48,000 nt of DNA from Egbenema sp. FJBBOT/2019 (GTDB lineage Bacteria; Cyanobacteriota; Cyanobacteriia; Elainellales; Elainellaceae), in assembly GCF_048077055.1 (NCBI RefSeq), contig NZ_CP182236.1:7450594-7498593 (forward strand), given 5' to 3'. Numbering within the stretch: position 1 is the first letter of the stretch; each line of letters opens with the position of its first letter. This document shows positions 585-32,006 of this stretch, one piece after another. A program made the translations under genes and the position numbers. The notes under the pieces are model-generated. The model worked only from the letters and a program-made list of their open reading frames with translations. It did not search any database and had not been told where the DNA came from.

Positions 585-1889
585 TTATGCACCAGGAACA
601 AATTGGAAGTCTTGCGTCAAGGTGACAGTTGTGTTGTCTGCTACGACTCCAACCAACATATTGGTTGGTTTGTGGAAGATAGCTATATCATTCAGCGAAC
701 CTCTCACACCTGCCGTATCAGCTAACCTCAGTAGATAGTCACTCGCTTGTCCTTGAACGGAAATCTTATCGCCTTGGGCGCGGCTAAAGTCTTCAATGAC
801 GGCGTATCCCTGATTATTTCGGTAGAAATCCTTGAGGTAGAAGGTGTCTGCCCCTGCACCACCGACCATCGTATCGACTCCACCACCCAAGCCGATAAGA
901 TGATCATTGCCATCACCACCCACCATCCGGTCTGACCCGGTGCCACCGATTAGCGTGTCGTTATACTTTCCGCCCAGCAAGGTGTCATTACCTGCCGCTC
1001 CATCCAGGTAGCTACCTGAGGTGGCATAGCCGTTATTCGCTATAAGCGTATTGTCGAAGCGGTTACCTACAGCACCAGTCGTTCCACCATGAAGTTGTAC
1101 TCTTTCAACAAATTGCAGATCATCGGACATTCGATAAGACTCATTCAGAGGTTGCCCGTTCTCAATCAAAAAGACCATGAGCGTATCGGTTCCTTCATTG
1201 GCATATTCAATGATTACTGGTGTGTTGTTGCTATGAATGTGGTAAGTATCATTGCCTGTTCCACCATACAAAGTGGTTCCAGCACCGCCGCTTAGAGTAT
1301 CGTTGCCTTCACCACCGTAGAACGTAGAGCCACTATCACTACCATATAACCAATCATCACCAGCATCTCCATAAATGGTATCTTTACCACCCCCTCCAAC
1401 AATCGTGTCATTTCCGCCGCCGCCCCGGAGTTCGTTGTCCCATCTGTTTCCCTCAATTCTGTTGGCTTGATTATTCCCAATTCCAACAATCCCAACCCCT
1501 TTAGTTGCATCATTCATCAGGGTCAAGTTTTCAACAAAATTAGGTAAAACGTATCGTCGAGCATGGGATTGTACCCAGTCAGTCCCCTCGCCATCGCGCT
1601 CAATGATTTGATCTTGTTCACTATCGACAACATAAGTATCATTTCCTTTGCCGCCAATCATGCGGTCATTACCAGTTCCCCCATCCAGGGAATCATCTCC
1701 ATCTAGTCCTACCAATGTGTCGTTGCCAGAGCCGCCGAGTAAGGTGTCGTTTTTTCCTCCCCCCGTTAGGCTGTCATTTCCAGCACCGCCATCAATGTGC
1801 CAGCTATCCCACCATTTGATGGGCCAAATTCCTGATTGTTCTGCTGTGATTGTGTCGTTGCCAGAGCCGCCACTTCTTCTCGTAACCAT
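585..1889 (-). CDS. RTX (hemolysin-type calcium-binding repeat) protein, paralogue 1
   Basis: 434 aa with many GGxGxDxUx nonapeptides (GGAGNDSLTGGGKNDTLLGGSGNDTLVGLDGDDSLDGGTGNDRMIGGKGND). AAGGAGAAACTTCA precedes the ATG. Paralogue of 25597..26895. Confidence 0.85.
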   Translation of the reverse strand: MVTRRSGGSGNDTITAEQSGIWPIKWWDSWHIDGGAGNDSLTGGGKNDTLLGGSGNDTLVGLDGDDSLDGGTGNDRMIGGKGNDTYVVDSEQDQIIERDGEGTDWVQSHARRYVLPNFVENLTLMNDATKGVGIVGIGNNQANRIEGNRWDNELRGGGGNDTIVGGGGKDTIYGDAGDDWLYGSDSGSTFYGGEGNDTLSGGAGTTLYGGTGNDTYHIHSNNTPVIIEYANEGTDTLMVFLIENGQPLNESYRMSDDLQFVERVQLHGGTTGAVGNRFDNTLIANNGYATSGSYLDGAAGNDTLLGGKYNDTLIGGTGSDRMVGGDGNDHLIGLGGGVDTMVGGAGADTFYLKDFYRNNQGYAVIEDFSRAQGDKISVQGQASDYLLRLADTAGVRGSLNDIAIFHKPTNMLVGVVADNTTVTLTQDFQFVPGA

Positions 1890-2188
1890 TGAAGTTTCTC
1901 CTTTAATTTCTTGTTTGAGTTGGGTGCAGTATTTTTTGTACTTGCGTTAGCGTTGGTGTATGCAGAGAAGTTATAGAAGATTAACCGAGTGCCTCAATCA
2001 GTATCGATTGCCTTCAGTAAGTTCGCTTTACATCCGTAGATTGAGTGTAATGGCGGTTAACTTTATCGGTCTAATACATACTTAATTGAATCAACAGTCG
2101 ATTAGAAAACTCGTTCATCAACTGATTTCGTTTGTTTTCCGCTGATTGGTTGTCTTCCATGTTTATAAGATACAAAGTCTACTCAGGT

Positions 2189-2266
2189 TTGTCTTTACAG
2201 GAAAGTATGGAGTGGAGTATGCAGTGAAATATCAGAAAAGTATGGTGAGATTTACCTAAAGTATGG
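2189..2266 (+). promoter_or_regulatory. Phased AGTATGG-box cassette, copy A (upstream of RTX-1)
   Basis: TGTCTTTACAGGAAAGTATGGAGTGGAGTATGC... with boxes starting at 2204, 2216 (AGTATGC), 2239 and 2260, spacing 12/23/21. The GTTC array to its left is degenerate in this copy. Confidence 0.6.
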
Positions 2267-2468
2267 TGATTTAACTGGTAGCGCAGGCATCTTGCCTGCA
2301 ACGGAGACTGAATTGAAAGCAAAAAAAACACCTACAAGTGAATCTTTAATCTTACAGAAAAACGAATTCCACAGAAAAACGATCGCCCAACCCTGTAAGC
2401 GATCGTCTATGTGCTGTTTGTTTTATGGGTGCCTGGTGGTGGGGACTCGCTGGTGGTGGGCAATGCCC

Positions 2469-2894
2469 CTACAGGGCAGGAATTACGCCGAGCTGCTGGA
2501 GTAGTCCCAGGGCATCCTCTTCGGTTCGTCCTTCCACAATTTTGCCGTCGCTCAGACGGTACATTTCAACGCCTGTGTAGGAGATGGCTCGTCCGGTGGG
2601 GGGTAAGTTAAGCAGGTGAATAAGCCCCTGATGGGTTCCTTTTGCAGCCCAGCAGATTACGACTTTGTCTGCTTCCGCGATCATCTCTGTAATCGTTAGT
2701 TGTAAATCAGGGAAACCAGCGTGAACATCTGTAATGAATGATTTGAAGCCTTCTCGATCGAGGGGTTGAGGAAAAATCGTGTAATGGATTTTGAAATCAG
2801 GACTGGTCAATTCATCGACAATCGCCAGATTGCCCTTACTCCAGGTTTCCTCAAAAAATAGCCGTGCGATTTCCTTGTTTCCTAGCATTAACAT
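2469..2894 (-). CDS. SnoaL-like / ester cyclase family protein
   Basis: 141 aa: NKEIARLFFEETWSKGNL..., GREGFKSFITDVHAGFPDL, GTHQG, PPTGRAISYTG and a LGLLQQLG tail match the SnoaL-like ester-cyclase pattern. Confidence 0.65.
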   Translation of the reverse strand: MLMLGNKEIARLFFEETWSKGNLAIVDELTSPDFKIHYTIFPQPLDREGFKSFITDVHAGFPDLQLTITEMIAEADKVVICWAAKGTHQGLIHLLNLPPTGRAISYTGVEMYRLSDGKIVEGRTEEDALGLLQQLGVIPAL

Positions 2895-2916
2895 AAGAAG
2901 GTTGCCTGATGACTAA

Positions 2917-3009
2917 TTGGTGGACTGGGCGGGCAAGATGCCCACCCCACAAGAGTTGTTTGCTGGTTCTGCTTGGTGGACTGGGCGGGCAAGATGCCCA
3001 CCCCACAAG
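2917..3009. repeat. Two direct copies of a 37-bp hairpin repeat (TTGGTGGACTGGGCGGGCAAGATGCCCACCCCACAAG)
   Basis: Identical copies at 2917-2953 and 2973-3009 between the HlyD stop and the SnoaL start. Each has a GGGCGGGCA/TGCCCACCC stem. The same family occurs at 41743-41828 and 46001-46034. Confidence 0.8.
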
Positions 3010-3029
3010 ATGCCCAGCCTACAAGAAGG

Positions 3030-4403
3030 TTAGCGAACTGAGAAGGCTTCACTGAGTTGTTTGGCGATCGGTTCCAGGATGAAGGAAAGTACCGATCGTT
3101 GGCGAATTACGATTTCCCCTGTGGCGGTCATGCCAGGTAGCAGACGGGTTTCAGTTTGTCCTACTGTGCGAATCGTTTGTTGATTCAGCTTGACTTTAAC
3201 CGGGAATACCAAGCCGAGGGATTCATCCATGACGGCATCGGCACTGATGCTGACGACTTCACCATCTACAGTGCCAAACTCCTGGAATGGGAACGTGGCA
3301 ATTTTCACTTTAACGCGCATTCCAGGCTCCACAAAGCCAATATCTCGATTCAGAATTCTTGCTTCTAAAATCATCTCTTCTCCTTCGGGCAACAACGAGA
3401 GGAGTTCTTCCCCTGATTGAACGGGCCCTACGGAGGCTTGCAGGTTGTAGATAGTGCCGCTAATGGGAGCTTGCAGGACATCCAGAGTTAATTGCTGACG
3501 GGCTGCTGCAATTTGTCCTTCTAAGGAAGCTAAATCCTGATGACGTTGATTTAAAGAGGCTAATACTTCACTTTGTCGTTCAGATCCTAATCGTTCAGCC
3601 ATGTTTAGCGTAGCCTGATAGGACTGTTCAGACTGTTGAATAATTTGAGCCTGGGCTTCAATTTCCCGTTCTAGTGAATTGACATTATTTTGTGCGGTGG
3701 TTAATTCATCCTGTATGCTCAAATAGGCGAATTGTGAAATGGCTCCATTTTCAGAAGAGGCTAATTCCCGCATTCTCGATTCTCGCTCGATCGCATTCCT
3801 GTGGATTAAACGCGCACTTACTAAGTTATCCTGTAAGCGGGCTAACTGAACTCTTGTTTCGTTGATCACAGCCCGTTGACGATTGGCTTCTGCGATCGCC
3901 CCTGCTTGCCGAGACTCAAAATCGCGTAGTCGAGCTGCCAAAAACTGATCTTGCAAAAAGACTCCGGTGCTATTGGTTCCAGTCCGTTCTGCTTCCAGTC
4001 GGGCAATATCTTCTCGAATCAGTTGAGCCGATTGTTCTAACCGATCGATTTCTGCCTGAGTAATGCTGGAATCTTTTTCCACCAGGACATCGCCTGCCTG
4101 TACCCGATCGCCATCTTTGACGTAAATTGACAGGATATTACCATTACCAATCGATCGAACCGGGCGCATTTGTTCCGATGGAGTCAATTTGCCGGAAGCC
4201 ACTGCCACCTCGTCAACTTTACTAAAGTAGGCCCAGGCTAAGGTTCCGACTAATAAAGTACTAATACCAATGCCCAGAATCCGGGTATAGAAGGGCGGCA
4301 ACTCTTTAACAGATTTACCTAACTCATAGGAAAGAAATTCTTGTTCTGTGACTAAATGCTGCCGAGTGTGACGAGCGTAGGGTGCGATGGGAGCTTGTTG
4401 CAT
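3030..4403 (-). CDS. HlyD-family type I secretion membrane fusion protein
   Basis: N-terminal TM helix (ILGIGISTLLVGTLAWAYF), long coiled-coil, then a C-terminal beta-barrel (GMRVKVKIATFP, LLPGMTATGEIV). I place the start at ATG 4403 (GAGG 8 nt upstream). The ORF-track extension to 4466 translates a heptamer repeat. Confidence 0.85.
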   Translation of the reverse strand: MQQAPIAPYARHTRQHLVTEQEFLSYELGKSVKELPPFYTRILGIGISTLLVGTLAWAYFSKVDEVAVASGKLTPSEQMRPVRSIGNGNILSIYVKDGDRVQAGDVLVEKDSSITQAEIDRLEQSAQLIREDIARLEAERTGTNSTGVFLQDQFLAARLRDFESRQAGAIAEANRQRAVINETRVQLARLQDNLVSARLIHRNAIERESRMRELASSENGAISQFAYLSIQDELTTAQNNVNSLEREIEAQAQIIQQSEQSYQATLNMAERLGSERQSEVLASLNQRHQDLASLEGQIAAARQQLTLDVLQAPISGTIYNLQASVGPVQSGEELLSLLPEGEEMILEARILNRDIGFVEPGMRVKVKIATFPFQEFGTVDGEVVSISADAVMDESLGLVFPVKVKLNQQTIRTVGQTETRLLPGMTATGEIVIRQRSVLSFILEPIAKQLSEAFSVR

Positions 4404-4420
4404 AGTAACCTCTGTGTTTG

Positions 4421-4448
4421 GGAGTGAGGAGTGAGGAGTGAGGAGTGA
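4421..4448. repeat. Heptamer tandem repeat (GGAGTGA)x4, STRR-like
   Basis: Four perfect tandem units, followed by the GGTGGGCA-A-TGCCCACC palindrome at 4458-4474, in the ABC/HlyD intergenic gap. The same heptamer array occurs at 45851-45885. Confidence 0.85.
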
Positions 4449-4486
4449 GAGAAGTAGGGTGGGCAATGCCCACCATTCACCAACCT

Positions 4487-7096
4487 TTAACCGATCGTTT
4501 GTTGCCGTTGGTAGAGTGACCAGTACAATCCTTGCTGTTCCATTAAAGTGGCATGATCGCCCTGTTCAACCAGTACGCCTTTATCTAAAACCAGGATCAA
4601 ATCGGCTCGTTTTAGCGGTTCAAAGCGGTGGGTAATCATGAAAACGGTGCGATCGGTTGCGGTGCGTTGGAGATTCGTTAATACGGTCTGCTCAGTTTCG
4701 CTATCTAATGCGCTGGTTGCTTCATCCAGAATCATGATCGGAGCCTGGGAGAGGAAGAATCGTGCTAACGCGATGCGCTGTCGTTGTCCGCCAGAGAGAG
4801 AGGTTCCCCGTTCTCCGACGTTGGTTTCGTAGCCTTGCGGCAGGTCAGTAATAAAGTTGTGGGCGGCAGCATTTTGGGCGGCGGTGATCACTGCTTCAGC
4901 CGTAATATCGGGATTGCCCAGGGTAATGTTTTCGAGTACTGAGCTGTTGAACAGAAAATCATCCTGCAACACCACTGAAATTTGTTGCCGCAGTGAACTT
5001 AAATCGGCTCCTTTCACCTCAAATCCATCGACTAAAATCCGTCCTGATTCCGGTTGATACAGTCCTTGCAGCAACTTAGACAGGGTGCTTTTACCCGAAC
5101 CACTGCGACCCACTACGCCCACCAGCATTCCCGGCTTGATGGTGAAGGAAACGCCGCGCAGGATGGGTTCCTGTGCTTCACGATAGCGGAAGAATACTTT
5201 CTCAAAACTGACTTCACCCTTGAGGGAGGGCAGGACTAAGCCCGTGCCGGGTTCTGCTTCCGGTGCGACGTTGAGAATATCACCGAGGCGATCGACCGAC
5301 AGCAGAACTTGCTGAAAACTTTGCCAGAGTTGCACCAGGCGTAGAATCGGACTGGTGACGCGGCTGGATAACATTTGGAACGCAACTAATTGACCGACGG
5401 TTAAATCACCCTTAATTGCCAGATGGGCACCGACTCCCAGAATTAGCAGGTAGGACAGACTGGTTAAAAAGTCGCCTAAGTGACTACTGATATTGGAGAT
5501 GGTTGAAGCGCGGAAGTCGGTGCGAACATAGCGGGCAAACAACCCTTCCCAGCGTTCACGGGTGGCGGGTTCCATCGTGTGGGCTTTGACGGCATGAATG
5601 CCTGTAATGGTTTCCACCAGAAATGATTGACTATCGGCATTCCGGTTAAAAGACTCATCCAGCCAGCGGCGCAAAACAGGTGTGGAGGTCAAAATCAATA
5701 GGGTGAACAGTGGAATCACGGCCAGAGCCACCCCCGTTAAGGTGACGTTGTAGTAGAGCATCAAAACCAGATACACCACCACAAAAATAGAGTCCAACAC
5801 GACGGTTAAGGCAGTCCCCGTCAGAAATTGCCGAATGTTTTCCATCTCCTGCACTCTGGCTACCGTATCCCCAACTCGACGCGCCTCAAAGTAGGCGAGG
5901 GGTAAGTGCATCAAATGGCGGAACACCTGGGCAGATAGGCTGAGATCGAGCCGTCGGGCGGTATGGGTGAAGGTGAACAGGCGCAGGATACCCAACAGAG
6001 CCTCAAAGACAGCAATGCTGAATAGGGCAATCAGCATTACATTCAGGGTGGAAACGCTGCCCTGTACCATCGCCTTATCAATAATCACCTGGGTTAATAC
6101 CGGAGTTCCTAATCCAAACAGTTGCAGGGTGAGGGAGGCGATCAGGACTTCGCCCAGCAATCGACGGTAGCGCAAAATGGCGGGGAGAAACCAGGAGAGG
6201 TTGAAGGTTTCCTGCTTCTGCATTGGCTCCACCTGCCAGAGCTGATGGTTCCAGGCGGCTTCAAAGTTGGCTTTGGGAATTCGCTGACAGGATTGCTGCG
6301 GGTCAAGGGGATGGGCAATGATCACCGTGTTTCCCTTGATGGCATACACCACGACCCAATGTTGTTCGTTCCAGTGCATCAAGGCTGGAAGATTGACCTG
6401 ATGCAGATCTGCCCAGGCGACGCGGATCGATCGCATCTGTAAGCCCAATTTTTCTGCGGCTTCTGTGACGTGCTTGGGGCGTTGCCCGCGTAACTGTCTC
6501 TGGACACGCTCCAGGTGAGTGGGCAGGTTCAGGTACTGCATCGCCATCGTCAGGCAAGCTGCCGCTGTATTCAAGCCTCCGACAAAGGGATAGTCTGAAA
6601 CCGCTTGAGTCACTGTGAGAGCCTGAGTTTGATAAGCCGATCGCACCTTCGTCCAAAACTGCTCCAGTTCCGTTGTCTGAAACGGTTCCCACAGTTCCCC
6701 GCTCCAGCAGGCGATGATGACTTCATTACTAGCGGCGATCGCCTTCACCTCGCCCAACAAGCCCAGCACCTCACCAAACCATTCACCTTTCGCCAGGGTT
6801 TTCAGAGAGGTTTGCGCTGCTGCTTCTCGTAAACGGACTTTCCCTTTCAAAACGTAGTAGAAGGCATTGGGCTGATTAGCATCCGTTGACCAAATTTTCT
6901 CGCCCATTTTGTATCGCACTACCTGCGCCTGATGATTCACAATCACCTGCTGTTGGGCAGTCAGTAGCGCAAAGGGCGGTTGTTCCCAATCAATGTCTTG
7001 GATAATCTCTGGAGTGGCGCGATCGAGGGTTGTTGTTGAACCAGTGGATGAGTCGGAGGGGGAAGCGGTTGGGTTGGGCATAATCTTGTGGCTCAT
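4487..7096 (-). CDS. Type I secretion ABC transporter with N-terminal cNMP-binding-like domain and degenerate C39-like peptidase domain
   Basis: 869 aa. CAP_ED-like beta-roll (GEKIW...YYVLKGKVRL...GEWFGE), C39-like block (NTAAACLTMAMQY ... HWVVV), six-TM ABC domain, Walker A GRSGSGKST, signature LSGGQRQR, Walker B ILDEATS. Confidence 0.9.
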   Translation of the reverse strand: MSHKIMPNPTASPSDSSTGSTTTLDRATPEIIQDIDWEQPPFALLTAQQQVIVNHQAQVVRYKMGEKIWSTDANQPNAFYYVLKGKVRLREAAAQTSLKTLAKGEWFGEVLGLLGEVKAIAASNEVIIACWSGELWEPFQTTELEQFWTKVRSAYQTQALTVTQAVSDYPFVGGLNTAAACLTMAMQYLNLPTHLERVQRQLRGQRPKHVTEAAEKLGLQMRSIRVAWADLHQVNLPALMHWNEQHWVVVYAIKGNTVIIAHPLDPQQSCQRIPKANFEAAWNHQLWQVEPMQKQETFNLSWFLPAILRYRRLLGEVLIASLTLQLFGLGTPVLTQVIIDKAMVQGSVSTLNVMLIALFSIAVFEALLGILRLFTFTHTARRLDLSLSAQVFRHLMHLPLAYFEARRVGDTVARVQEMENIRQFLTGTALTVVLDSIFVVVYLVLMLYYNVTLTGVALAVIPLFTLLILTSTPVLRRWLDESFNRNADSQSFLVETITGIHAVKAHTMEPATRERWEGLFARYVRTDFRASTISNISSHLGDFLTSLSYLLILGVGAHLAIKGDLTVGQLVAFQMLSSRVTSPILRLVQLWQSFQQVLLSVDRLGDILNVAPEAEPGTGLVLPSLKGEVSFEKVFFRYREAQEPILRGVSFTIKPGMLVGVVGRSGSGKSTLSKLLQGLYQPESGRILVDGFEVKGADLSSLRQQISVVLQDDFLFNSSVLENITLGNPDITAEAVITAAQNAAAHNFITDLPQGYETNVGERGTSLSGGQRQRIALARFFLSQAPIMILDEATSALDSETEQTVLTNLQRTATDRTVFMITHRFEPLKRADLILVLDKGVLVEQGDHATLMEQQGLYWSLYQRQQTIG

Positions 7097-7170
7097 GGTT
7101 GGGAGATAGGGTTTCGTATAGTCGTGTCTCAGATGGGGAGGTTATCCATGATTGAAGGTAGCGATCGAAG

Positions 7171-7345
7171 CGTTCTCAGAGCGTTCCGAAACCGTTCTGG
7201 GGTCGTTCGGTGATGGCTTGACCTCCACACTTCACACAATACAGAAGCTCTCCAGCCCTGTCTTTACAGGAAAGTATGGAGTGGAGTATGCAGCTCAATT
7301 GTGAGAAAAGTCAGAAAAGTATGGTGGGGATTGGCAAAAGTATGG
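7171..7345 (+). promoter_or_regulatory. Phased-repeat cassette, copy B (upstream of the ABC-HlyD operon)
   Basis: GTTC at 7172/7183/7194/7205 (exactly 11 bp apart). TGTCTTTACAGG, then AGTATGG boxes at 7273, 7285 (AGTATGC), 7318 and 7339, spacing 12/33/21. Confidence 0.65.
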
Positions 7346-7416
7346 AGAACGGCAACTGAGGTTGGAGCGATCGGTTGGAGCGGTTGGGGATATGCGGAAA
7401 AATAACGTACCCGGTG

Positions 7417-7438
7417 GGGGCGCACAACTGTGCGCCCC
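7417..7438 (-). terminator. GC-rich hairpin downstream of PPC-C2 gene A (candidate terminator)
   Basis: GGGGCGCACA/TGTGCGCCCC stem of 9-10 bp. On the minus strand a T5 run follows about 14 nt later (CGTTATTTTTCC), so it is not a textbook intrinsic terminator. Confidence 0.45.
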
Positions 7439-7491
7439 TATCCCCACGAACCTATTGGCAATTCAGCGGACGATGCACACTGCAAACGAGC

Positions 7492-8487
7492 TTAAACGTA
7501 TCGGGTAGAGATTTTGAAGGTAATCTCATTGCGATTGGAGTCGTTTCCTTCAGTCGTCTTGGATTCTCCCAGGTTGAATGCGGAGATCCGCAAATCATTA
7601 GAGGTAACACGACCGGATTGCAAGTCTACTCTGAAGTCCAAACCTCTTCCAGAACCGGAGTTAATATCTGCCTGGTCATCAAAGATCAAGTCCTTGTCCC
7701 AAACTTCAAGGGAGATATTGACTGGATTGCCGCCTGTGAGAGGAACGTCTCTAGTAAAACTCCAGTTTGGATTGTGAGAGAAAGCACCTATGGTTCCCAA
7801 ACCTCCCCACGCAGTTGGCCACTTAATTGGCTGAGTCTGGAATCGCGTTCCACCCATATTGACCTTGGCATACCAGTCAGGCCGCCCACCGTTGTCTAGT
7901 TCACCTGTGTCTTTAAGGTTCGTGACATCTAAAACAAGCTGTTTGCGAGACTCCCGTGCGGAAACACCTAAGCTGTAGTTAATTGTGTTGGTTGTGTTCG
8001 TGTTAGGACGAAAGACCGCAGCATAGTAGGTTCCGGCTTCCAGTCCGGCTCTTTGAAAATGAGTAGATGCCGTGCCCGGTAAAATGCTTGCTGCACCAAC
8101 CGATCGACCATCCGCACCCATTAGAGACACAATTACGGTTTCATTAGCTCGTGTATTTGTGTTGGTCAGCGACAAACTCACTGTATTCTTGCTATTGTTA
8201 ACAGTGAATGCGTACATATCCATCGCATCAAACGAGCTAACTGTACCGGTATAGGAGGCAGAGCCGTTATTGGTAAAGTCGCCAATGTGATTATTCCGTC
8301 GAGCTTCTTCAGCGGTGTTGTTGGCTTCCCGTTCTCGTCCGCTAAAGTTATAGGATGTGCTTGTACTTTGAGTGGAACGAATAGAAGTAGATGCTTCTAA
8401 AGCAGATCGATTGGCTGCTTGTAGCTGGTTAACATTGGTACTCAAGCGATTAACTGGATTGAGTCGGTTAACTTGAGAATTCGACAT
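7492..8487 (-). CDS. Secreted-type protein: conserved N-terminal leader-like segment, S/T-rich linker, PPC (pre-peptidase C-terminal) domain, C2-like C-terminal domain (paralogue A)
   Basis: 331 aa. PPC signature DMYAFTV...VSLSL...GTYYAAVFR...YSLGV. C-terminal PDWYAKVNMGGTRFQT...NPNWSF...ISLEVWDKDLIFDDQADIN resembles the C2 consensus. Close paralogue of 9953..10933. Confidence 0.75.
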   Translation of the reverse strand: MSNSQVNRLNPVNRLSTNVNQLQAANRSALEASTSIRSTQSTSTSYNFSGREREANNTAEEARRNNHIGDFTNNGSASYTGTVSSFDAMDMYAFTVNNSKNTVSLSLTNTNTRANETVIVSLMGADGRSVGAASILPGTASTHFQRAGLEAGTYYAAVFRPNTNTTNTINYSLGVSARESRKQLVLDVTNLKDTGELDNGGRPDWYAKVNMGGTRFQTQPIKWPTAWGGLGTIGAFSHNPNWSFTRDVPLTGGNPVNISLEVWDKDLIFDDQADINSGSGRGLDFRVDLQSGRVTSNDLRISAFNLGESKTTEGNDSNRNEITFKISTRYV

Positions 8488-8801
8488 TGAAGTTATCCTT
8501 TTTGAAGTTTAAGTATGGTTTATATTTGCTGAGTTTTGACGCAACCTGTCCCAGCCTTACTCCAGCGGTGACTGTCCAGAGAACTATGCAATTCAGTTTA
8601 GGAGAATGCTTTGGGATGATTGGTCACTAGTATCGATCGTCCACCTAGTCCTTCAGGGAAGATTCTGGCGGACAGTTCCCACCCTACTCAGAGTCTATCC
8701 GTAAACTTATGAGAGCTTTTGGCATCCAAGTTCCTGACGGAGTTCTCAGATAGGTGCTTAAAGCAGTTTCTTTGTAGGATAGGGAGTGTCCATCAGAATG
8801 A

Positions 8802-9563
8802 CTAGGCTACTCGAAGTTGAACCCGTTTGTCGTGCAGTTTTTGAGCAATCCACTGGTCAAAAATCGTATTGCATAACAGTTGTTGGACTTCCTCATTAGC
8901 GAGGGACGCAGGCAAAAACTGTTCTAGACGGAATAAACACCACTTCTGATCGATTTCAATGGGGCCAACAATATCTCCCACCTTTGCCAAATCGATCGCC
9001 ACTCGCAATGCATCCGGCAATTGACCTCGGCTAATGGTTCCCAGCATACCATTGACGACTCGATCGCCTGATATGGAATACTCTCGCACCAGTTGCTCAA
9101 AGCTGGCTGCTTCTTCTATGATCTGAGCTTTCAGTTCTTCAGCCAGTTCCCAGTTTTCTACGACTAAGCGGGATAGCACAACCTGGTCAAGATGGAGTTT
9201 TTGATCGATGAAGGTTTCCTGCAACTTGGGTTCCACGATCGTGGGTAGAAACTGGTTCATCTGGAATTGATGGGTGATATTTTGCTCAAAAGCTGTTCTC
9301 GTCAGACCTTGCTGTGCCAACCACTGCTGATAGTGTTGATCATCCAGAAGCTGATTTTCCTGACGAAAGTTAGTGATGATTTGCTGGATCTGTTCTGCGC
9401 TAACCTTTGCTTGAGGACAGTTTTGTAATTCTTGCTTTAAGACGTGCTGCTGTAAGACTGTGCTAATGAATGAACTGAGTTGACCAGAGGTTTGCAGATA
9501 ATCAATGATCTGTTCGATCGTGATGGGATGATCGTCAATATAGAGAAAGGTTGGGGTGTTCAT
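8802..9563 (-). CDS. Parvulin/SurA-like peptidyl-prolyl isomerase family protein (paralogue 1)
   Basis: 253 aa. The C-terminal block EYSISGDRVVNGMLGTISRGQLPDALRVAIDLAKVGDIVGPIEIDQKWCLFRLEQ fits the PpiC rotamase pattern (S..GG.LG...G.l...f..a...l..G..s.P). Paralogue of 12510..13274. Confidence 0.65.
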   Translation of the reverse strand: MNTPTFLYIDDHPITIEQIIDYLQTSGQLSSFISTVLQQHVLKQELQNCPQAKVSAEQIQQIITNFRQENQLLDDQHYQQWLAQQGLTRTAFEQNITHQFQMNQFLPTIVEPKLQETFIDQKLHLDQVVLSRLVVENWELAEELKAQIIEEAASFEQLVREYSISGDRVVNGMLGTISRGQLPDALRVAIDLAKVGDIVGPIEIDQKWCLFRLEQFLPASLANEEVQQLLCNTIFDQWIAQKLHDKRVQLRVA

Positions 9564-9614
9564 CGTATTTCCGAGTTAGGTTTACTACTGAATCAAACTA
9601 AGTTGGGATCGAAT

Positions 9615-9789
9615 TGTTCTCAAAGTGTTCCGAAACCGTTCTTCAACTCTTCCGATTTTTGTTCAAATTTCATACTCATACTATACAAAAGCTACCCGTG
9701 CTTGTCTTTACAGGAAAGTATGGAGTGCGGTATGCAGCTCAATTGCCAGAAAAGTCAGAAAAGTATGGTGGAGTTTCTCAAAAGTATGG
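9615..9789 (+). promoter_or_regulatory. Phased-repeat cassette, copy C (upstream of parvulin-like gene 1)
   Basis: GTTC at 9616/9627/9638, CTTC at 9649, GTTC at 9661. AGTATGG boxes at 9717, 9729 (GGTATGC), 9762 and 9783, spacing 12/33/21. Confidence 0.65.
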
Positions 9790-9851
9790 AGAATGGCAAT
9801 CAAGGTTGAGGCGATCGGTTGTAGCGGTTGGGGACATGCGGAAAAATAACG

Positions 9852-9892
9852 TAGGGGCGCACTGCTGTGTGCCCCTACTGCTGTGCGCCCCT
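9852..9892 (-). terminator. GC-rich hairpin with duplicated 3' arm downstream of PPC-C2 gene B (candidate terminator)
   Basis: GGGGCGCAC can pair with either GTGTGCCCC (9868-9876) or GTGCGCCCC (9883-9891). The unit ACTGCTGTGYGCCCCT is duplicated. A minus-strand T5 run follows (CGTTATTTTTCC). Confidence 0.45.
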
Positions 9893-9952
9893 ATTCCCAT
9901 GAACCTATTAGCAACTCAGCGGGCAATGCAGAGATGCAAACGGCAAATGAGC

Positions 9953-10933
9953 TTAAACGTATCGGGTAGAGATTTTGAAGGTGATTCGATTGCGATTAGA
10001 ATCATTGCCTTCAGTGGATTTTGTCTCTCCCAGGTTGAACGAGGAAATCCGCAAATCATTAGAGGTAACACGACCGGATTGCAGATCAACCCTAAATTCC
10101 AGGCTTCTTCCAGAACCAGAGTTGATATCTGCCTGGTCATCAAAGAACAAGTCCTCGTCCCAAACTTCAAGGGAGATATTGACTGGACTACCGCCTGTCA
10201 GGGGAATATCTCTGGTAAAACTCCAGTTTGGATTGTAGGAAAAGGGTAGATAAACCCCCGTAAACCAGCCCCAATCTGGAGGCCGAGTCTGAAATCGAGT
10301 TCCGCCCATGTTGACTTTGGCATACCACTCAGGCGGGGAACCAGAATCCAAACCCACTAGGTCGGTGAGGTTCGTGACATCCAGAACAAGCTGTTTTCGA
10401 GACTCTCGTGCGGAAACACCTAAGTTGTAGTTGATGGTGTTGACCGTATTAGAGGCAGCGCGGTAGACCCCAGCATAGTAGGTTCCAGCTTCCAATCCAC
10501 TAAGCTGAATGCTTTCCGCTTGGGTGCCTGGTTTAGCTGATGCACCGATTTCCTGCCCACGAGAATCATACAGAAATAGGTTTGCATTTGCGTTCATGCC
10601 AGACAGTGATAGATTCACTGTGTTTTTGCTGTTTCTAACGGTAAAGGCATACAGGTCTAACGAGTCACTGGAGCTAACTGTGCCGCTGTAGGAAGTAGAA
10701 GCATTGTGGGTATAGTCACCAATGTGGTTGTTCTGTAGTGCCTGGGTAAACGTATTGTTCGCTTCCCGCTCTCGACCCGTGTAGTTATAGGATGTACTGG
10801 TACTGGTACTGGTGGTTGTGCTGGAACGTGAAGCAGTTGATTGTTCTAGCGCAGATCGATTTGCTGCTTGCAAACTAACATTAGAACTCAGACGATCGAC
10901 TGGATTGAGGAGATTAGCAGGAGAGTTCGACAT
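9953..10933 (-). CDS. Secreted-type PPC + C2-like domain protein (paralogue B)
   Basis: 326 aa. Same architecture as 7492..8487: MSNSPANLLNPVDRLSSNV..., DLYAFTV...GTYYAGVYR, PEWYAKVNMGGTRFQT...NPNWSF...LEVWDEDLFFDDQADIN, and a conserved tail ITFKISTRYV. Confidence 0.75.
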   Translation of the reverse strand: MSNSPANLLNPVDRLSSNVSLQAANRSALEQSTASRSSTTTSTSTSTSYNYTGREREANNTFTQALQNNHIGDYTHNASTSYSGTVSSSDSLDLYAFTVRNSKNTVNLSLSGMNANANLFLYDSRGQEIGASAKPGTQAESIQLSGLEAGTYYAGVYRAASNTVNTINYNLGVSARESRKQLVLDVTNLTDLVGLDSGSPPEWYAKVNMGGTRFQTRPPDWGWFTGVYLPFSYNPNWSFTRDIPLTGGSPVNISLEVWDEDLFFDDQADINSGSGRSLEFRVDLQSGRVTSNDLRISSFNLGETKSTEGNDSNRNRITFKISTRYV

Positions 10934-11127
10934 AGAAGTAATCCTTCAAGACAAAATGATTGACAGGTTATTTGATTCACGATCCTTTGTTAGATTTTCA
11001 GGAAAGGTGGTAGGGAGAACCGTGCCAACCCTACCAACCTTGTATCGCTTTCAGTCCATCCGGCTTCACCAGCAGGCTTTAGCTATACTTTGGCAAGCCA
11101 TTTGGAACTGAAATTTATCTTGCCTAC

Positions 11128-12386
11128 TTATGCAGCGGAAGCCGGAGTAGGTTGGCTAGCATCTCTTACGGTTAGCTTATAACTGCTGCCCTGTGAGTGC
11201 GAGCCATTGAAGACCTTCACAAAGTAATCTCCAGGTGCCAACGTCTTTTGGAACTCCTTAACATCTGTGCCACTTTGCGTCAGTTCTTTCACCTTTCTGC
11301 CCTGAGAATCCATCAATTTCAGGTTCAGGTTTTGGTTCATCTCAGCCAATGAAAAGCTGACATTGGTTTGTTGATCAAGGGAAAAGGCATAGATATCTTT
11401 GATATCATCTCTAGCAGTTTCACCTTTCGCCGTAATCGCCTTTGCAGACAGGTTTCCTAAGTTATTATTTGCCCGTGCGTCTGCGATCGTATTATTACTT
11501 TCCTGCTCTAAAAAGTATGGATTGGGAGGCTGAGGTGCGCCTGCGGAAGGCTGCCCCACCGAAGGTCTCGGAGGAGTGGGTACGCCTGCAGGCTGGGGAG
11601 CATAACTAATAGGGGCAGGTGGTCGAGGAACGCGATGATCGACAATGCTCGGACCGGCTGGAGTTGGGCTAGCAGGACGATGATCGACAACGATCGGACG
11701 AGCTGGAGTCGGGTTTTGAATTGTAATCGTTGGAAGTTGAACGGTTACGTTTGGCAGACCTGCGGGTTTGGTCACTGCGCCGATTACGCTATTGATTGCA
11801 TTACTGGCTGCATTACTGACTGCATTGGCGGCAGTTGCTACGGGGCGAGCCACGGTGTTGACCACTGTATTAGCTGCGTTTACTGCCGTTGACACCGGAC
11901 GAGTCACCGTGTTTAGAACTGTGTTGGCTGCATTTGTTACTGCTGCCGTGACGGGTCGAGCGACGGTGTTAATCGCAGCATTGGCTACGTTTGCTGCCGT
12001 TGACACCGGACGAGCGACTGTGTTTAGAACTGTACCGGCTGCATTATTAACTGCATTTACGGCAGTTGATACGGGTCGTGTTACTGCACTGGCGACAGCC
12101 GATCCAACCGCAGCAATACTAGACAGGGTCGGTGGTTTAATTGTCACCTGTACACCTGTTGGGGAAGGATTAGAACTAACAGGTGTTTGCGGTCGGTGAT
12201 CGACAACGACTGCGGCCGGGGTGCGATCGCGGTCGAGGCAGTCGAGCTTGGCGCACGGCTAGGAAGCACATTGTTTGCGATCTGCGTTGCTGCACCGATC
12301 GGATTACTTGTGGTTGTAATCGCTGAAGATACAGCAGTTGCGGTCAAGTTACGATTTTGTTGGGTTGTGTTTGCAGTTGCCAACAT
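11128..12386 (-). pseudogene. Third PPC-domain protein with ~18-aa TVARPVSTAxNAxN repeats and a Pro-rich linker; reading frame broken by a 1-nt shift
   Basis: ATG 12386 has AGGAG 10 nt upstream and opens MLATANTTQQNRNL.... That frame stops at 12144. The 339-aa ORF (11128..12147) stays open in the -1 frame back to 12258 (AAVVVDHRPQTP, echoing the internal IVVDHRPASP). C-terminal PPC: DIYAFSL...GDYFVKVF...YKLTV. Confidence 0.6.
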
Positions 12387-12509
12387 TGAGATTAATCTCC
12401 TAAGTAATTTGTTGTTTAGATGCCCACTACGAGTTTCATCCTGTTCGTGGTGGGTAGAGCCTATCCTGGGGGTTGTCCACAGCATAGGCATTACCAACCA
12501 GAATCACGA

Positions 12510-13274
12510 TCACGAGGCAAGCTGTAATTCAACGTGTCTATCCCGCATCCTTTCAGCCATCCATTCCTCAAAAATTTGAGTTTGCAGTGAAGTTTGAATC
12601 GCTTCATCCGCCAGAGAAGCTGGAATAAACTGTTCAACTCGGTACAGAAACCATTGCTGCTCAAACTCTAAGGGACCAACAATGTCACCGGGTTGAGCCA
12701 CATCGATCATGGCGCGCAGTCCATCCGATAGCTGACCTCGGCTAAGGGCACCCATCATGCCATTGATCAGGCGATCGTCCGATACAGAATACTCTCGCAC
12801 CAGTTGCTCAAAGCTGGCTCCTTCTTCTGTAATTTGTGTTTTGAGTTCCTCTGCCAACTCCTGGCTATCCACTACTAACTGCGACAGCACGACCTGGTCA
12901 AGATAAAGCTTTTGATTGATAAAGGTTTCTTGCAACTTTGGCTCAACAATGGTTGGCACAAACTGTTCTAACCGCAGGCGATGCATAATATCTTGTTTAA
13001 GGGCGATTTCAGTTGTGCCTTCTTGGGCTAACCATTGCTGAAAGCACTGATCGTCTACAAGCTGTTTTTGTTGTCGAAACTCTGCAATCATTCGCTCAAC
13101 TTGTTCTAAGCTAATATGTGCTTCAGGACAGCTTTGTAACGCTTGCTCTAAAATATGCTGGTGCAAAACCGTACTGATAAATGATTCAAGCTGTCCAGAG
13201 GTATGAAGATAGCGAAGGATCTGGTCGATCGGAATCGGTTGACTATCAATATAGAGAAATGCTGGAGTGTTCAT
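12510..13274 (-). CDS. Parvulin/SurA-like peptidyl-prolyl isomerase family protein (paralogue 2)
   Basis: Start chosen at MNTPAFLYID to parallel MNTPTFLYID of paralogue 1; the ORF-track start at 13340 is also possible. C-terminal EYSVSDDRLINGMMGALSRGQLSDGLRAMIDVAQPGDIVGPLEFEQQWFLYRVEQ. Confidence 0.65.
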   Translation of the reverse strand: MNTPAFLYIDSQPIPIDQILRYLHTSGQLESFISTVLHQHILEQALQSCPEAHISLEQVERMIAEFRQQKQLVDDQCFQQWLAQEGTTEIALKQDIMHRLRLEQFVPTIVEPKLQETFINQKLYLDQVVLSQLVVDSQELAEELKTQITEEGASFEQLVREYSVSDDRLINGMMGALSRGQLSDGLRAMIDVAQPGDIVGPLEFEQQWFLYRVEQFIPASLADEAIQTSLQTQIFEEWMAERMRDRHVELQLAS

Positions 13275-13371
13275 TGGGTTATCAGGATAAGTGTGCTGAA
13301 TCGTTTTAAGGTTTTGGATTTGAGCTAGGAAAGTCATCAACTTGATGATGGCTGAAACAACTTTAAGTTAA

Positions 13372-13546
13372 TGTTCCATGCGTTCTCAAATCGTTCCTAA
13401 ACCGTTCTGAAGTTGTTCCGTCGGTGGTTTGTCTCCCACACTTCTTACGATACAGAAGTCATCCAGAGCTGTCTTTACAGGAAAGTATGGAGTGGAGTAT
13501 GCAACGCAATATCAGAAAAGTAAGGTGCGATCGGCTTAAAGTATGG
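13372..13546 (+). promoter_or_regulatory. Phased-repeat cassette, copy D (divergent region between parvulin-like gene 2 and STAND gene 1)
   Basis: GTTC at 13373/13382/13393/13404/13415 (spacing 9/11/11/11). AGTATGG boxes at 13484, 13496 (AGTATGC), 13519 (AGTAAGG) and 13540, spacing 12/23/21. Confidence 0.65.
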
Positions 13547-13707
13547 AATGGGGTAAAGAGGCACTAATGCTTCAGGAATCCGTCCCTTTGCTGTGTAGTG
13601 GTTTAGAGCCTGCCATACCATAGAAAAAGTGTGGGTTTTGCCTGAACCCCAGAAAAATAGGGTATAAATTTCTGAGAAGCATATATATTCCTCTATATTT
13701 CAGTCCT

Positions 13708-16700
13708 ATGCACCCTGCCTCAGCGATCGAAATTGAGTTTGATCAAGTAATTCCCATCGTGAACAATATCCTGCAAGGGAAATGCGATCGCCCCCTCAGT
13801 GATCTGGAGGTTGAACTATTGAGGGGAGCCTGGGATAATTTGACCTATGATGAAATCGCTGCTCGATCGGGCTATTCGCTGAACTATCTCCAGCGGGATA
13901 TGGGTCCAAAGTTTTGGAAGCTCCTGGGTCGTAGCGTGGGGCAAAAACTTAGCAAAGCGAACGCCAGAGTTATTTTGACTCAGATTGCACAATCCCAGCT
14001 ACAACCCCCAGAGCCTCCGCCTCCCCTGCCAGATGCCACCCCTCCAGAGACGCAAGCAAAACTCCTCACAGTTCAGACCGCCCGCCCCGATCCGCCGCCT
14101 CTCCCCTCGCCTCCCGCCATTCCCTCCACCTGCGACTGGGGCGAAGCGATCGATACGTCTATCTTTTATGGTCGAGAAACTGAGTTACAGACCTTGCATC
14201 AATGGATCATTGATGACCATTGTCGAATGATTGCGGTACTGGGCATAGGAGGTATCGGGAAAAGTTCCCTGGCCGCCAAAATCGCTACCATCCTGCAAGA
14301 TCAGTTTGAGTTCATCATCTGGCGATCGCTGCGGAACGCCCCACCGTTGGAAACCTTGCTCAGGGAGCTTGTCCCCTTTGTTTCCCGTCAGCAAGATACC
14401 CAAGCCCAACCCGATCGACTGCTGCACTGGCTGCGTACCCATCGCTGTCTGGTAATTCTCGATAACCTGGAAACCGTTATGCAGGTTGGCGATCGGGCCG
14501 GATACTATCAATCTGATTATGAGAACTATGGCGAATTGCTGCGAATCGTTGGAGAAACCACCCATCAAAGTTGCGTCTTGCTGACTAGCCGCGAAAAGCC
14601 ATCGGAAATTGCTGTGCTGGAAGGCCCAGATACCTGGGTGCGATCGCTGACCTTAGGCGGTTCTCCAGAAGCCTCGCTGGCTCTAATTGAGTCAAAAGGT
14701 TTATCCGGAGAAGCAGCAGAAAAACTACAACTTTGTGAGTCCTATAGTTATAATCCACTCGCTCTGAAGATTGTCGCGTCTTTCATTGACAGTCTGTTTG
14801 ATGGAGAAATTGCTACATTTCGGCAAGAAAACACCTTGCTGGTCAATGGTCTGCGGCGTTTGCTGGAACAACAGTTTGAGCGATTATCCTACCTGGAACA
14901 AACGATCATGTACTGGTTGGCGATCAACCGTGAATGGATCACGATCGCTGAACTGATGGAAGATATAGTTCCAACACCTTCTAGAGTTAACTTGCTAGAG
15001 ACATTGGAATCACTAACGTGGCGATCGTTGGTGGAAAAGCGAGCGGGTGCATATACTCAGCAACCCGTTGTCATGGAATATATTTTGGAATGCTTGATTG
15101 AGCGAATTGCAACCGAGTTAATCACAAACAAGCTTTCCCTGTTTCACCGCTACGCGCTCGTTAAAACATCTGTTCTGGAATATATTCGTGATAGTCAAAT
15201 TCGCTTAATTTTACAACCGATCGCCAATCGATTGCAGTCTACCTTGCCTGCTCGATCAGCAATAGAACAGCATCTCAGAACAGTCCTACAGCAACTACGG
15301 GCTACGACCCATCCAACTTCACGCTACGGTGTGGGCAATTTACTAAACCTGCTGATTCATTACCAAGTTGATTTGGCTGACTATGATCTGTCTCATCAAC
15401 AGATTTGGCATGCTCAGTTGGAGAAAACGACCCTCCAACGCACCAATTTTTCCTATGCTGAATTGCACCAAACAACCTTTATCCAACCCCTGAGCTATAT
15501 TCTGGAACTGGCCTTCAGTCCGGATGGTCAATTGCTGAGTACCGTTGATAGTACAGGACACATTTATCTGTGGCGGGTTCAGGATGGGCAACCGATCGTC
15601 AATCGTTTGGGACATGCCAGCCGGATTCATTCAGTTTGCTTTAGTCCGGATGGTGCGATCCTTGCTACAGGCAGTGCCGATCGTACCGTTAGACTCTGGG
15701 ATGTCAAAACAGGCACAATGCTGAAGCAACTTCATGGGCACACAAATGAAGTTCGATCTGTCGCCATTAGCCCCAACGGGCAATTCTTAGCGAGTGCCAG
15801 TGCCGACACCACCATTCAAATCTGGGATTTGGCGAGTGGGACATTGCAAAAAACGCTCACTGGGCATGAAGATGAGCTTTGGTCATTAGCATTTAGTCCC
15901 AATGGGCAATACCTGGCGAGCAGTGGGGCGAGACCAAACATCCGGATCTGGGATGGGGTAACGGGAACTCTGGTGCGGACGCTGGCAGGAGATGCGCCGA
16001 TTCATTGGTCGGTGTCCTTTAGTCCCGATGGACAAATCCTGGCGACGGGCAGTAACGATCACATGGTGCGCTTGTGGCAGGTGGCAACGGGGCAGCTTTT
16101 ACGAACCTTAGACGGCCATACGAGCCATGTCATTACAACTTGCTTTAGTCCGGATAGATTGTACCTGGCAAGTGGTAGCCTGGATTGTTCGATTCGGATC
16201 TGGGATGTCCGAACCGGTGCGCTGCTCAAAACGTTTCAGGGACATACCAATGGGATCTGGTCGATCGCTTTTAACCCAGACGGTTCCCTGCTGGCCAGTG
16301 GTGGGCAAGATTACTGTGTGAAATTGTGGGATATCAAGCTGGGGCAGACTCGTAAAACGCTGCGAGGTTACAGCAATAGTGTGCGATCGGTTCGTTTCAG
16401 TCCAGATGGGCAGACGATCGCAGCGGCTGGGTATGATCCTAAGATCAGAATTTGGGATGTCGCCCTTGAGCAAATCACTCAGTCCTTTTACCCGGAACCA
16501 GGCGGAGTCTTTTCAGTGGAATTCAGCCCAGATGATACCCTGTTGGCCAGCGGTGGCTCTGCTAACACCATCAGCCTTTGGAATTTAAAGACTGGGCAAC
16601 TGTTACGAAGATTAGTGGGACATCAAGGCTGGATTTGGTTATTGTCCTTTAGCCCCGATGGACACTACATTGCCAGCGGTAGCACAGACAGCACCCTGAA

Positions 16701-31899: not shown

Positions 31900-31977
31900 T
31901 GCACTAACCCGCCTTCAGCTGAAGAAAAAATCTTTCTACTAGCCTACGCTCTCTAACCTGGCTTGTGGGGATTAAAA

Positions 31978-32006
31978 AGTATGGAATTTGGGTGAAAAAA
32001 GTATGG
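31978..32006 (+). promoter_or_regulatory. Mini AGTATGG-box pair upstream of the diiron oxygenase-like gene
   Basis: AAAAAGTATGG at 31978 and AAAAAGTATGG at 32000, 22 bp apart, same strand as the other cassettes, 80-107 nt upstream of the minus-strand ATG at 31899. Confidence 0.5.

Follow-up and report, generated by a model that had tools for sequence, protein, structure and literature searches.

What does a type I secretion system (T1SS) export when several of the genes around its pump encode proteins without RTX repeats, in whose absence T1SS substrates are hard to predict? The question is posed by an island at positions 585-13340, on the minus strand, of a 48-kb window (the window being the whole stretch of DNA analysed, 48,000 nucleotides of the cyanobacterium Egbenema sp. 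FJBBOT/2019). In order of transcription, the island encodes parvulin-like protein 2, a PPC-repeat protein, PPC-C2 protein B, parvulin-like protein 1, PPC-C2 protein A, an ABC exporter, HlyD, a SnoaL-like protein and RTX-1. We read it, at a probability of about 0.6, as a T1SS island that would export not only RTX-1 but also the PPC-C2 proteins. The nine minus-strand open reading frames (ORFs) lie where, and in the order in which, a first-pass annotation of the sequence had placed them, and every domain named there was recovered, whether by Pfam and NCBIfam (TIGR model) searches against curated cutoffs, by profile matches or by fold search. The coding features are as follows (the cutoff for Rotamase, passed by both parvulin-like proteins, is 21.7 bits).

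12510-13274, minus (ORF open to a TTG at 13340): parvulin-like 2; Rotamase 34.2 bits
12144-12386, minus: likely former N-terminal part of the PPC-repeat gene, out of frame with the main ORF and encoding MLATANTTQQNRNLTATAVSS... (from three-frame translation and the N-termini of homologues)
11128-12147, minus: PPC-repeat protein, main ORF; NTVARPV-type repeats of ~18 aa, Pro-rich linker and PPC, without C2
9953-10933, minus: PPC-C2 B, paralogue of A; PPC (PF04151) 40.6 bits against a cutoff of 25.9
8802-9563, minus: parvulin-like 1; Rotamase (PF00639) 42.7 bits; SurA-N plus parvulin architecture
7492-8487, minus: PPC-C2 A; polar N-terminal peptide, Ser/Thr linker, PPC and C-terminal C2
4487-7096, minus: ABC exporter; cNMP_binding, Peptidase_C39, ABC_membrane and ABC_tran; HlyB model TIGR01846 769.3 bits against a cutoff of 725.55
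3030-4466, minus: HlyD; TIGR01843 274.5 bits against a cutoff of 208.65
2469-2894, minus: SnoaL-like protein; SnoaL 109.8 bits
585-1889, minus: RTX-1; HemolysinCabind 131.6 bits

The exporter and its candidate cargo

The ABC protein (869 aa) combines cNMP-binding, C39-like (CLD), transmembrane and ATPase domains. It passed the HlyB model TIGR01846 and failed the bacteriocin and NHLP ABC models of NCBIfam, and its best solved relative in the PDB was HlyB (E 7.7e-176). Aligned to the double-glycine protease LahT150 (6mpz), its C39-like domain has Thr at the position of the catalytic Cys. When 80 loci were gathered with an alignment of the parvulin-like proteins as query (one genome per species), 78 gave ABC homologues, in which the catalytic Cys column held Thr (59) or Ser (12) and in no case Cys; the catalytic His was kept in 26/78 and the Asp in 7/78. 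A column that is never Cys, and is Thr or Ser in 71/78 homologues, argues that the CLD is non-catalytic and not a double-glycine peptidase. Judged by its sequence, it is a C39-like domain of the HlyB kind, whose substrates are whole proteins. The core of the ABC protein was 71-82% identical to all other homologues, closest to that of L006 (L001-L093 are loci, and P0013 and similar identifiers proteins, of a comparison set from other genomes), and this is therefore an ordinary ABC of the parvulin-linked family. The HlyD gene starts 21 nt downstream of the ABC gene, and HlyD orthologues lie 3′ of the ABC gene in L006, L089, L090 and L091. Taken together, models and alignments place the locus as a cyanobacterial HlyB/HlyD-type T1SS locus of the widespread parvulin plus cNMP-CLD ABC family. 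Pfam and NCBIfam scans of the large ORFs of the window found no TolC-like product, as the first-pass annotation had already remarked; TolC is often unlinked, an example being HgdD in Anabaena (PMC4390845).

RTX-1 has GGxGxD nonapeptide repeats, no signal peptide and the terminal sequence ...DFQFVPGA, and is by these features a classical candidate cargo. It is 59% identical to a second RTX protein of the window, RTX-2 (25597-26895, minus). In the comparison set, an RTX homologue ending ...DFKFV is encoded 3′ of the PPC-C2 gene in L001, and another RTX protein is encoded near the ABC and HlyD genes of L089.

The PPC-C2 proteins are candidate cargo of a less familiar kind. A and B (326-331 aa) are 69% identical along their entire length (E 5e-155). 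The PPC domain of B scored above the gathering score of PF04151, and that of A is supported by 69% identity to B across the region. A word-indexed homologue search with A returned only A and B; their relatives came from an exhaustive HMMER search, and few of these were full-length. Eighteen C-terminal domains made up the alignment of the C2 family, the profile of which matched solved C2 domains (4rj9, E 3.5e-7; perforin; Munc13). The Pfam C2 score of A alone was 19.3 bits, just under the cutoff of 22, and 9/18 family members matched. A full-length AlphaFold2 (AF2) model of A, built from a two-sequence alignment, was poor (pLDDT 48), and a model of the domain built from the 18 sequences was used instead (pLDDT 91); in a Foldseek search with this model, ranks 1-49 were all C2 domains. 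Profile, predicted model and fold search thus agree that A and B end in a genuine C2 domain. Asp is invariant in the 18 sequences at alignment positions 84 and 92 and at least 90% conserved at positions 22 and 88, and these conserved residues align with the loop aspartates of a plant C2 domain. Matches to the sorting domain of the type IX secretion system (Por_Secre_tail) were rejected, being below threshold and falling on the PPC sandwich.

Inspection of the N-termini of A, B and the PPC-repeat protein revealed neither a Sec-type hydrophobic segment nor a double-glycine leader, in agreement with the first-pass annotation. Relatives of the C2 family in other organisms do carry Sec signal peptides (a 186-aa ORF in L088, P0135 and P0070; a metagenome scan with a narrower C2 alignment gave one locus, that of the Sec-signal C2 protein of L088), which implies that this domain family works outside the cytoplasm. 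PPC domains, for their part, are typical of secreted peptidases. Domains of an extracytoplasmic, Ca2+-related type in proteins with no Sec or Tat signal are the profile of T1SS cargo.

Either end of A and B could carry a secretion signal. At the N-terminus, the motif [LMI][ND]xxx[RK]L occurs within the first ~20 residues of 8/8 N-extended proteins encoded directly after a parvulin gene, against a background of ~1% of ORFs, and among 151 proteins from the exhaustive search it was confined to A, B, P0013, P0050 and P0059. Profile searches with the N-termini recovered only seed sequences at E < 0.01. At the other end, signal-less C2-bearing neighbours all terminate in C2, whereas the Sec-dependent P0135 and P0070 have C2 near the N-terminus. 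It is the motif shared after parvulin genes, and the terminal position of C2 in signal-less proteins, that suggest the two ends. A double-glycine leader was rejected as a third reading of the N-termini, among which no GG, GA or GS site is conserved; the CLD, moreover, is inactive.

Parvulin-like partners and linkage in other cyanobacteria

The two parvulin-like proteins are 63% identical (E 3e-124). The likely start of parvulin 2 is the ATG at 13274 (MNTPAF...), on which the alignment and a 254-aa NCBI product (P0155) agree. The parvulin-like protein aligns to residues 50-252 of SurA, that is, to the N-terminal chaperone domain and first parvulin domain, and also to PrsA. No signal peptide or lipobox was found in the parvulin-like proteins, which should therefore be cytoplasmic. 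Across 85 family members the first catalytic His is Arg in 83, and the column of the second is Gly, Ala, Leu or Cys; with both catalytic His replaced, the protein is probably not an active isomerase. From these features it is read as a cytoplasmic chaperone or adaptor, not as an isomerase. Matches to TIGR04500 (PpiC-related peptide maturation protein) reached 67.1 and 53.2 bits, below the cutoff of 180.

The parvulin family is tied to the pump. A parvulin gene stood directly 5′ of a cNMP-CLD ABC gene in 78/80 cyanobacterial species loci, and one of the two exceptions was a contig end. L033 (10001-10762), from a metagenome-assembled genome of the Oculatellaceae, is, of the complete loci among the 80, the only one whose parvulin-like gene has no ABC gene after it; the next large ORF on the same strand begins ~760 nt downstream. 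In a neighbour-joining tree of 85 sequences, parvulins 1 and 2 of the window grouped with those of L001, L003 and L006 to the exclusion of all others, and all five genes are followed by one for a PPC or C2 protein.

The first-pass annotation had placed its candidate cargo with this pump, and linkage of PPC-C2 homologues to T1SS genes, found in L006, L089, L090 and L091, speaks in favour of that placement. Gene orders in the comparison loci were as follows.

L006: STAND-WD40 gene divergent from parvulin, then PPC-C2, cNMP-CLD ABC and HlyD
L091: STAND-WD40 gene divergent from parvulin, then PPC-C2, PPC-PPC-C2, ABC and HlyD
L089: parvulin, then CARDB-C2, ABC and HlyD, with the RTX gene nearby
L090: PPC-C2, then ABC, HlyD and parvulin
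L001: STAND-WD40 gene divergent from parvulin, then PPC-C2 and RTX; no ABC gene within 10 kb
L003: STAND gene divergent from parvulin, then a double-C2 protein; no ABC gene within 10 kb
L092 and L093: parvulin, then PPC-PPC

A C2-bearing signal-less protein, an ABC gene and an HlyD gene thus occur together in five independent loci, the window included, and a gene for a signal-less PPC or C2 protein lies directly 3′ of a parvulin gene in seven of the comparison loci (L001, L003, L006, L089, L091, L092 and L093). The association extends to the 80 canonical loci, 20 of which encode, within 2.5 kb of the parvulin-ABC pair, a signal-less protein with PPC at or near its N-terminus; these 20 were 20/21 of the PPC proteins found anywhere in the 10-kb flanks. 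Examples from loci L010-L087 are L010 6102-8237, L019 13660-15543 and L031 4829-7393. The six of the 20 that were checked in Pfam had PPC together with an S8 subtilase, a calpain-type C2 peptidase or a cadherin-like domain, or PPC alone. The S8 proteins, published as maturation enzymes, may themselves be cargo.

Duplication, shared cassette and divergent neighbour

A duplicated unit of parvulin, PPC gene, terminator and cassette had been described by the first-pass annotation. The duplication is real (63-69% identity at the protein level, 72-87% between the DNA copies), although the cassette is present in four copies rather than the two described, the additional ones lying 5′ of parvulin 2 and 5′ of RTX-1. 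These elements, and the genes divergent from parvulin 2, are the following.

13362-13547, minus: cis cassette 5′ of parvulin 2, in the divergent intergenic region common with the STAND gene; core 13470-13502
9852-9893, minus: GC-rich, terminator-like hairpin 3′ of PPC-C2 B (inverted repeat I4)
9596-9790, minus: cis cassette 5′ of parvulin 1; core 9703-9735, with two mismatches
7414-7440, minus: GC-rich, terminator-like hairpin 3′ of PPC-C2 A (inverted repeat I1 and alignment)
7152-7346, minus: cis cassette 5′ of the ABC gene; 33-nt core 7259-7291
2170-2270, minus: cis cassette 5′ of RTX-1; three CCATACTTT boxes and 33-nt core 2190-2222
13708-17394, plus: protein with HTH-like N-domain, NB-ARC/NACHT and WD40 (Pfam NB-ARC, NACHT and WD40)
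17534-21277, plus: second, tandem HTH-NB-ARC-WD40 paralogue (Pfam), its N-domain 77% identical to that of the first

The cassette is an element of ~100-190 nt. Its 33-nt core, GCATACTCCACTCCATACTTTCCTGTAAAGACA, occurs at four sites (three of them perfect) where 0 are expected, and CCATACTTTY boxes number 13 against 0.13 expected. Four units of the island are headed by it: parvulin 2 to B, parvulin 1 to A, ABC-HlyD with or without SnoaL, and RTX-1. The presence of the same cassette before the cargo-parvulin units, the pump and RTX-1 points to one regulon. Rfam found no RNA family in the window, and the cassette is accordingly not a known RNA element. The non-coding stretches 3′ of A and of B have a mean column identity of 85%, with a GC-rich hairpin in each, neither of which was called by a generic terminator scan. 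Generic scans gave no enrichment, either for promoters (16 found, 16.9 expected) or for terminators (7 found, 13.3 expected).

Two CCATACTTTT boxes, without the 33-nt core, were also seen at 31975-32006, 5′ of a weakly AurF-like gene (30955-31899, minus; 27.3 bits, below cutoff), which may be a further member of the regulon.

The gene divergent from parvulin 2 encodes a protein with matches to NB-ARC (36.8 bits) and NACHT (33.2 bits), both above cutoff, 12 WD40 repeats, and a conserved HTH-like N-domain of ~90 aa that is labelled HTH_VMAP-M9 in precomputed Pfam matches of homologues. The same kind of gene is divergent from the parvulin gene in L001, L003, L006 and L091 (L006 has a second STAND-type gene close by, separated from the first by an SBP gene) and is all but missing from the 80 canonical loci, among which only L063 has an NTPase match. 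From its position we propose the HTH-NB-ARC-WD40 protein as a candidate regulator of the cassette promoters. Elsewhere in the window, RTX-2 is divergent from a third HTH-NB-ARC-WD40 gene (27290-30895), and 5′ of RTX-2 the cassette recurs in altered form, with TTTTCTGTAACGACA and two GTGGACnTTTT boxes; this arrangement suggests that the RTX-2 block is a parallel regulator-operator pair. Between the STAND genes and the RTX-2 block is a pair of overlapping ORFs (23716-24854; HTH_32, DDE_3 transposase) resembling an insertion sequence.

The third PPC gene of the island is less straightforward. The PPC domain of the PPC-repeat protein is 36% identical to that of B (E 6e-14), and a 111-nt tandem repeat at 11840-12045 (1.9 copies, 83% matches) encodes its NTVARPVSTA-type peptide repeats. 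The MLATANTTQQNRNLTATAVSS frame, which overlaps the main ORF in GTGA, agrees in sequence with the beginning of two intact homologues, P0053 and P0074; a 432-aa homologue in L090 is intact too. On this sequence comparison the gene looks frameshifted; its split could reflect a pseudogene, a sequencing error or translational coupling.

The SnoaL-like gene, which is located between HlyD and the RTX-1 cassette, is an uncertain member of the system. A SnoaL gene lies ~9 kb from the module in L003, and genes for SnoaL-like, alpha-amylase (CBM_48) and acidic-repeat proteins recur within 10-20 kb of a parvulin-cargo module in L001, L003 and the window. Such recurrence indicates a broader synteny, which could inflate the apparent functional linkage of SnoaL. 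The acidic-repeat protein of the window (32534-34264, minus) has 576 aa, a clear Sec signal and ~19 copies of the 13-residue, His-rich acidic repeat GGHGGDDxGDAAE (39-nt period), and the DNA encoding it is 61% GC and has a strongly negative GC skew. L003 encodes a homologue (12224-13771) ~8 kb away from its parvulin-C2 pair. The protein of the window may belong to the envelope and bind metal or Ca2+.

Rival readings and known systems

Were the T1SS reading correct, export might proceed as follows. RTX-1, A and B would be made in the cytoplasm, where the parvulin-like proteins would hold cargo export-competent or target it, perhaps by way of the N-terminal [LMI][ND]xxx[RK]L of the product of the gene after each parvulin gene. 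The CLD of the ABC protein would receive the cargo, which would then leave the cell in a single step by way of ABC-HlyD and a TolC-type channel whose gene lies elsewhere in the genome. Once outside, the cargo would bind Ca2+ by its RTX repeats or by the Asp-rich C2 loops and so fold. The cNMP domain might gate the pump through a nucleotide ligand, and the divergent HTH-NB-ARC-WD40 protein would control the cassette-bearing promoters. A bolder generalisation, which we offer tentatively and think possible rather than probable, is that a filamentous-cyanobacterial branch of T1SS exports signal-less, non-RTX beta-sandwich proteins (PPC-C2 and, more widely, PPC-S8 and PPC-calpain proteases); that a dedicated cytoplasmic, catalytically dead SurA/PrsA-like parvulin serves it as secretion chaperone or adaptor by reading the N-terminal [LMI][ND]xxx[RK]L; that Ca2+ drives folding and secretion through a C-terminal C2 domain in place of RTX repeats; and that an HTH-NB-ARC-WD40 STAND regulator switches the whole regulon through the CCATACTTT boxes.

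Several observations weigh against export of A and B by this pump, or against parts of the scheme just given. The CLD of HlyB binds RTX substrates, and A and B have no RTX repeats. Two conserved ends of A and B had been singled out by the first-pass annotation as possible signals. The N-terminus is indeed conserved, at 24/31 identical residues, but this is barely above the 69% found overall and about what would be expected of paralogues so related; the tail ITFKISTRYV is indeed present, but in the AF2 model it is predicted to form the last beta-strand of the C2 fold, and as a folded strand it is not obviously a free signal. The N-terminal motif is a regular expression set post hoc and is absent from L089_270 and L091_398, and a profile made from the N-termini of A and B reached that of P0059 only at E 0.34. 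HlyD was found within 10 kb in only 7/80 canonical loci, the PPC-C2 homologue of L005 has neither a parvulin nor an ABC gene nearby, and the parvulin-cargo pairs of L001, L003 and L092 have no ABC gene within 10 kb. The cassette sequence is absent from the loci of other species that were compared, and position is the sole link between the WD40 protein and the cassette.

Some of these points would be accommodated if ABC and HlyD exported only RTX proteins (RTX-1, perhaps RTX-2), the parvulin and PPC-C2 genes being a separate two-gene module whose products stay inside the cell or leave by another route, and which is here through synteny and duplication. Transporters of the HlyB type with a CLD classically take RTX substrates, RTX-1 has both the repeats and a hydrophobic C-terminus, and besides the pump-less pairs of L001, L003 and L092 there is the Elainellaceae genome of L001, in which a second, canonical-type parvulin (P0197) is encoded elsewhere. 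A separate module of this kind is harder to reconcile with a parvulin family tied to the ABC gene in 78/80 species, with C2-bearing signal-less proteins between or beside parvulin, ABC and HlyD in five loci including the window, with one cis cassette heading cargo units, pump unit and RTX-1 alike, and with domains in A and B that are of extracytoplasmic type yet come without a Sec signal; we consider it unlikely, though a serious competitor. Considerably less probable is a locus built around the STAND proteins for conflict or defence, in which HTH-NB-ARC-WD40 proteins would be the sensors and the PPC-C2 proteins membrane-targeting effectors held in check by parvulin, the T1SS serving release or being incidental. 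The divergent STAND-WD40 gene does accompany the cargo-linked parvulins of the window, L001, L003, L006 and L091, while being nearly absent from the 80 canonical loci (only L063 having an NTPase match), and membrane binding is a property of C2 domains, perforin being an example. Conflict systems of multicellular bacteria have been described that include NTPase-repeat proteins of this type (PMC7159879). PADLOC, however, had no match for parvulin, A, RTX-1 or SnoaL, and matched the STAND proteins through their WD40 repeats only; the N-domain looks like a DNA-binding HTH, as would fit a regulator; no enzymatic effector domain is present; and L089, L090 and L092 have no STAND gene.

The remaining candidate is the one under which such clusters have been published. 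The first-pass annotation had pointed to a tie between C39-ABC, HlyD and SurA-like clusters and cyanobacterial bacteriocin loci, and the tie exists: groups I, II and VI of Wang et al. 2011 share a core of long-type CAP_ED-C39 ABC, SurA-like gene and HlyD, and group VI is defined by S8-peptidase proteins (PMC3140520). The gene set of the island fits groups I and VI. In a bacteriocin-type (PCAT) cluster, C39 would cleave the double-glycine leaders of small precursors and export the products, and the rotamase would act in modification. Here Thr stands in place of the catalytic Cys, which none of the 78 homologues has, the intergenic regions of 7097-13700 contain no small ORF (at least 25 aa) with a double-glycine leader, the ABC protein scores above cutoff with the HlyB model and with none of the bacteriocin ABC models, and the parvulin domain lacks its catalytic histidines, so that the sequence largely refutes this reading, which we hold to be highly improbable. 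The original survey, too, found hardly any precursors in groups I and VI, with ~0.35 identifiable double-glycine precursors per cluster (PMC3140520), a shortage that degenerate active sites would explain. With C39 degenerate and the rotamase without its catalytic His, ‘bacteriocin maturation’ is unlikely, and the published label of groups I and VI looks wrong for the family.

Set beside groups I, II and VI, the island has the same core gene set, and PPC-PPC-S8 neighbours were seen in the comparison loci, as S8-peptidase proteins are in group VI; the island differs in having PPC-C2 proteins (326-331 aa) encoded between parvulin and ABC genes, a duplicated parvulin-cargo pair, a shared cis cassette and a STAND-WD40 neighbour. 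With HlyB-HlyD-TolC of E. coli it shares a non-catalytic N-terminal C39-like domain, an HlyD adaptor and signal-less RTX cargo encoded nearby. TolC is encoded elsewhere in the E. coli hly system too. Unlike that system, the island has an extra cNMP domain before the CLD, a dedicated parvulin-like gene and candidate non-RTX cargo (PPC-C2), and it is without an acyltransferase gene. SurA and PrsA resemble the parvulin-like proteins in joining an N-terminal chaperone domain to a parvulin domain, and the first parvulin domain of SurA is also catalytically inactive; they are, however, exported and extracytoplasmic, whereas the parvulins of the island are signal-less and have both catalytic His replaced family-wide. 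In the T1SS of the HasA haemophore, a non-RTX cargo needs the cytoplasmic chaperone SecB to stay export-competent. The gene for SecB, a general chaperone, is not part of the HasA system, whereas the putative chaperone of the island is dedicated, linked to the pump and duplicated with its cargo. The Sll1180/Sll1181/Slr1270 system of Synechocystis, in which TolC is unlinked and an HlyB/HlyD pair exports a large, signal-less, Ca2+-binding S-layer protein of RTX type, is not known to have PPC-C2 cargo or to involve a parvulin. HetC of Nostoc PCC 7120 has the same cNMP, C39 and ABC architecture; its cNMP domain is essential and binds ppGpp in vitro (PMC10986499), which is a precedent for nucleotide gating. 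HetC differs in that it keeps catalytic Cys and His and is an active peptidase, in that no membrane-fusion gene adjoins hetC, and in that no parvulin partner is reported (PMC10986499).

The core gene set is known, though apparently misnamed. What is new is the candidate non-RTX PPC-C2 cargo, the fact that it is paired with inactive parvulins of a dedicated sub-clade, the chaperone-cargo unit present twice, the cassette of the regulon and the STAND neighbour. The most widespread cyanobacterial clusters of long-type C39 ABC, SurA and HlyD, published in 2011, are still labelled bacteriocin loci. This locus offers testable material in a candidate cargo of 326-331 aa, a candidate dedicated cytoplasmic chaperone (rare for T1SS), a promoter cassette and a candidate regulator. 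If the reading is true, a secretion tag and chaperone pair would become available for cyanobacterial engineering, a large family of cyanobacterial clusters would be re-annotated, and it would be clearer how signal-less PPC proteases exit the cell.

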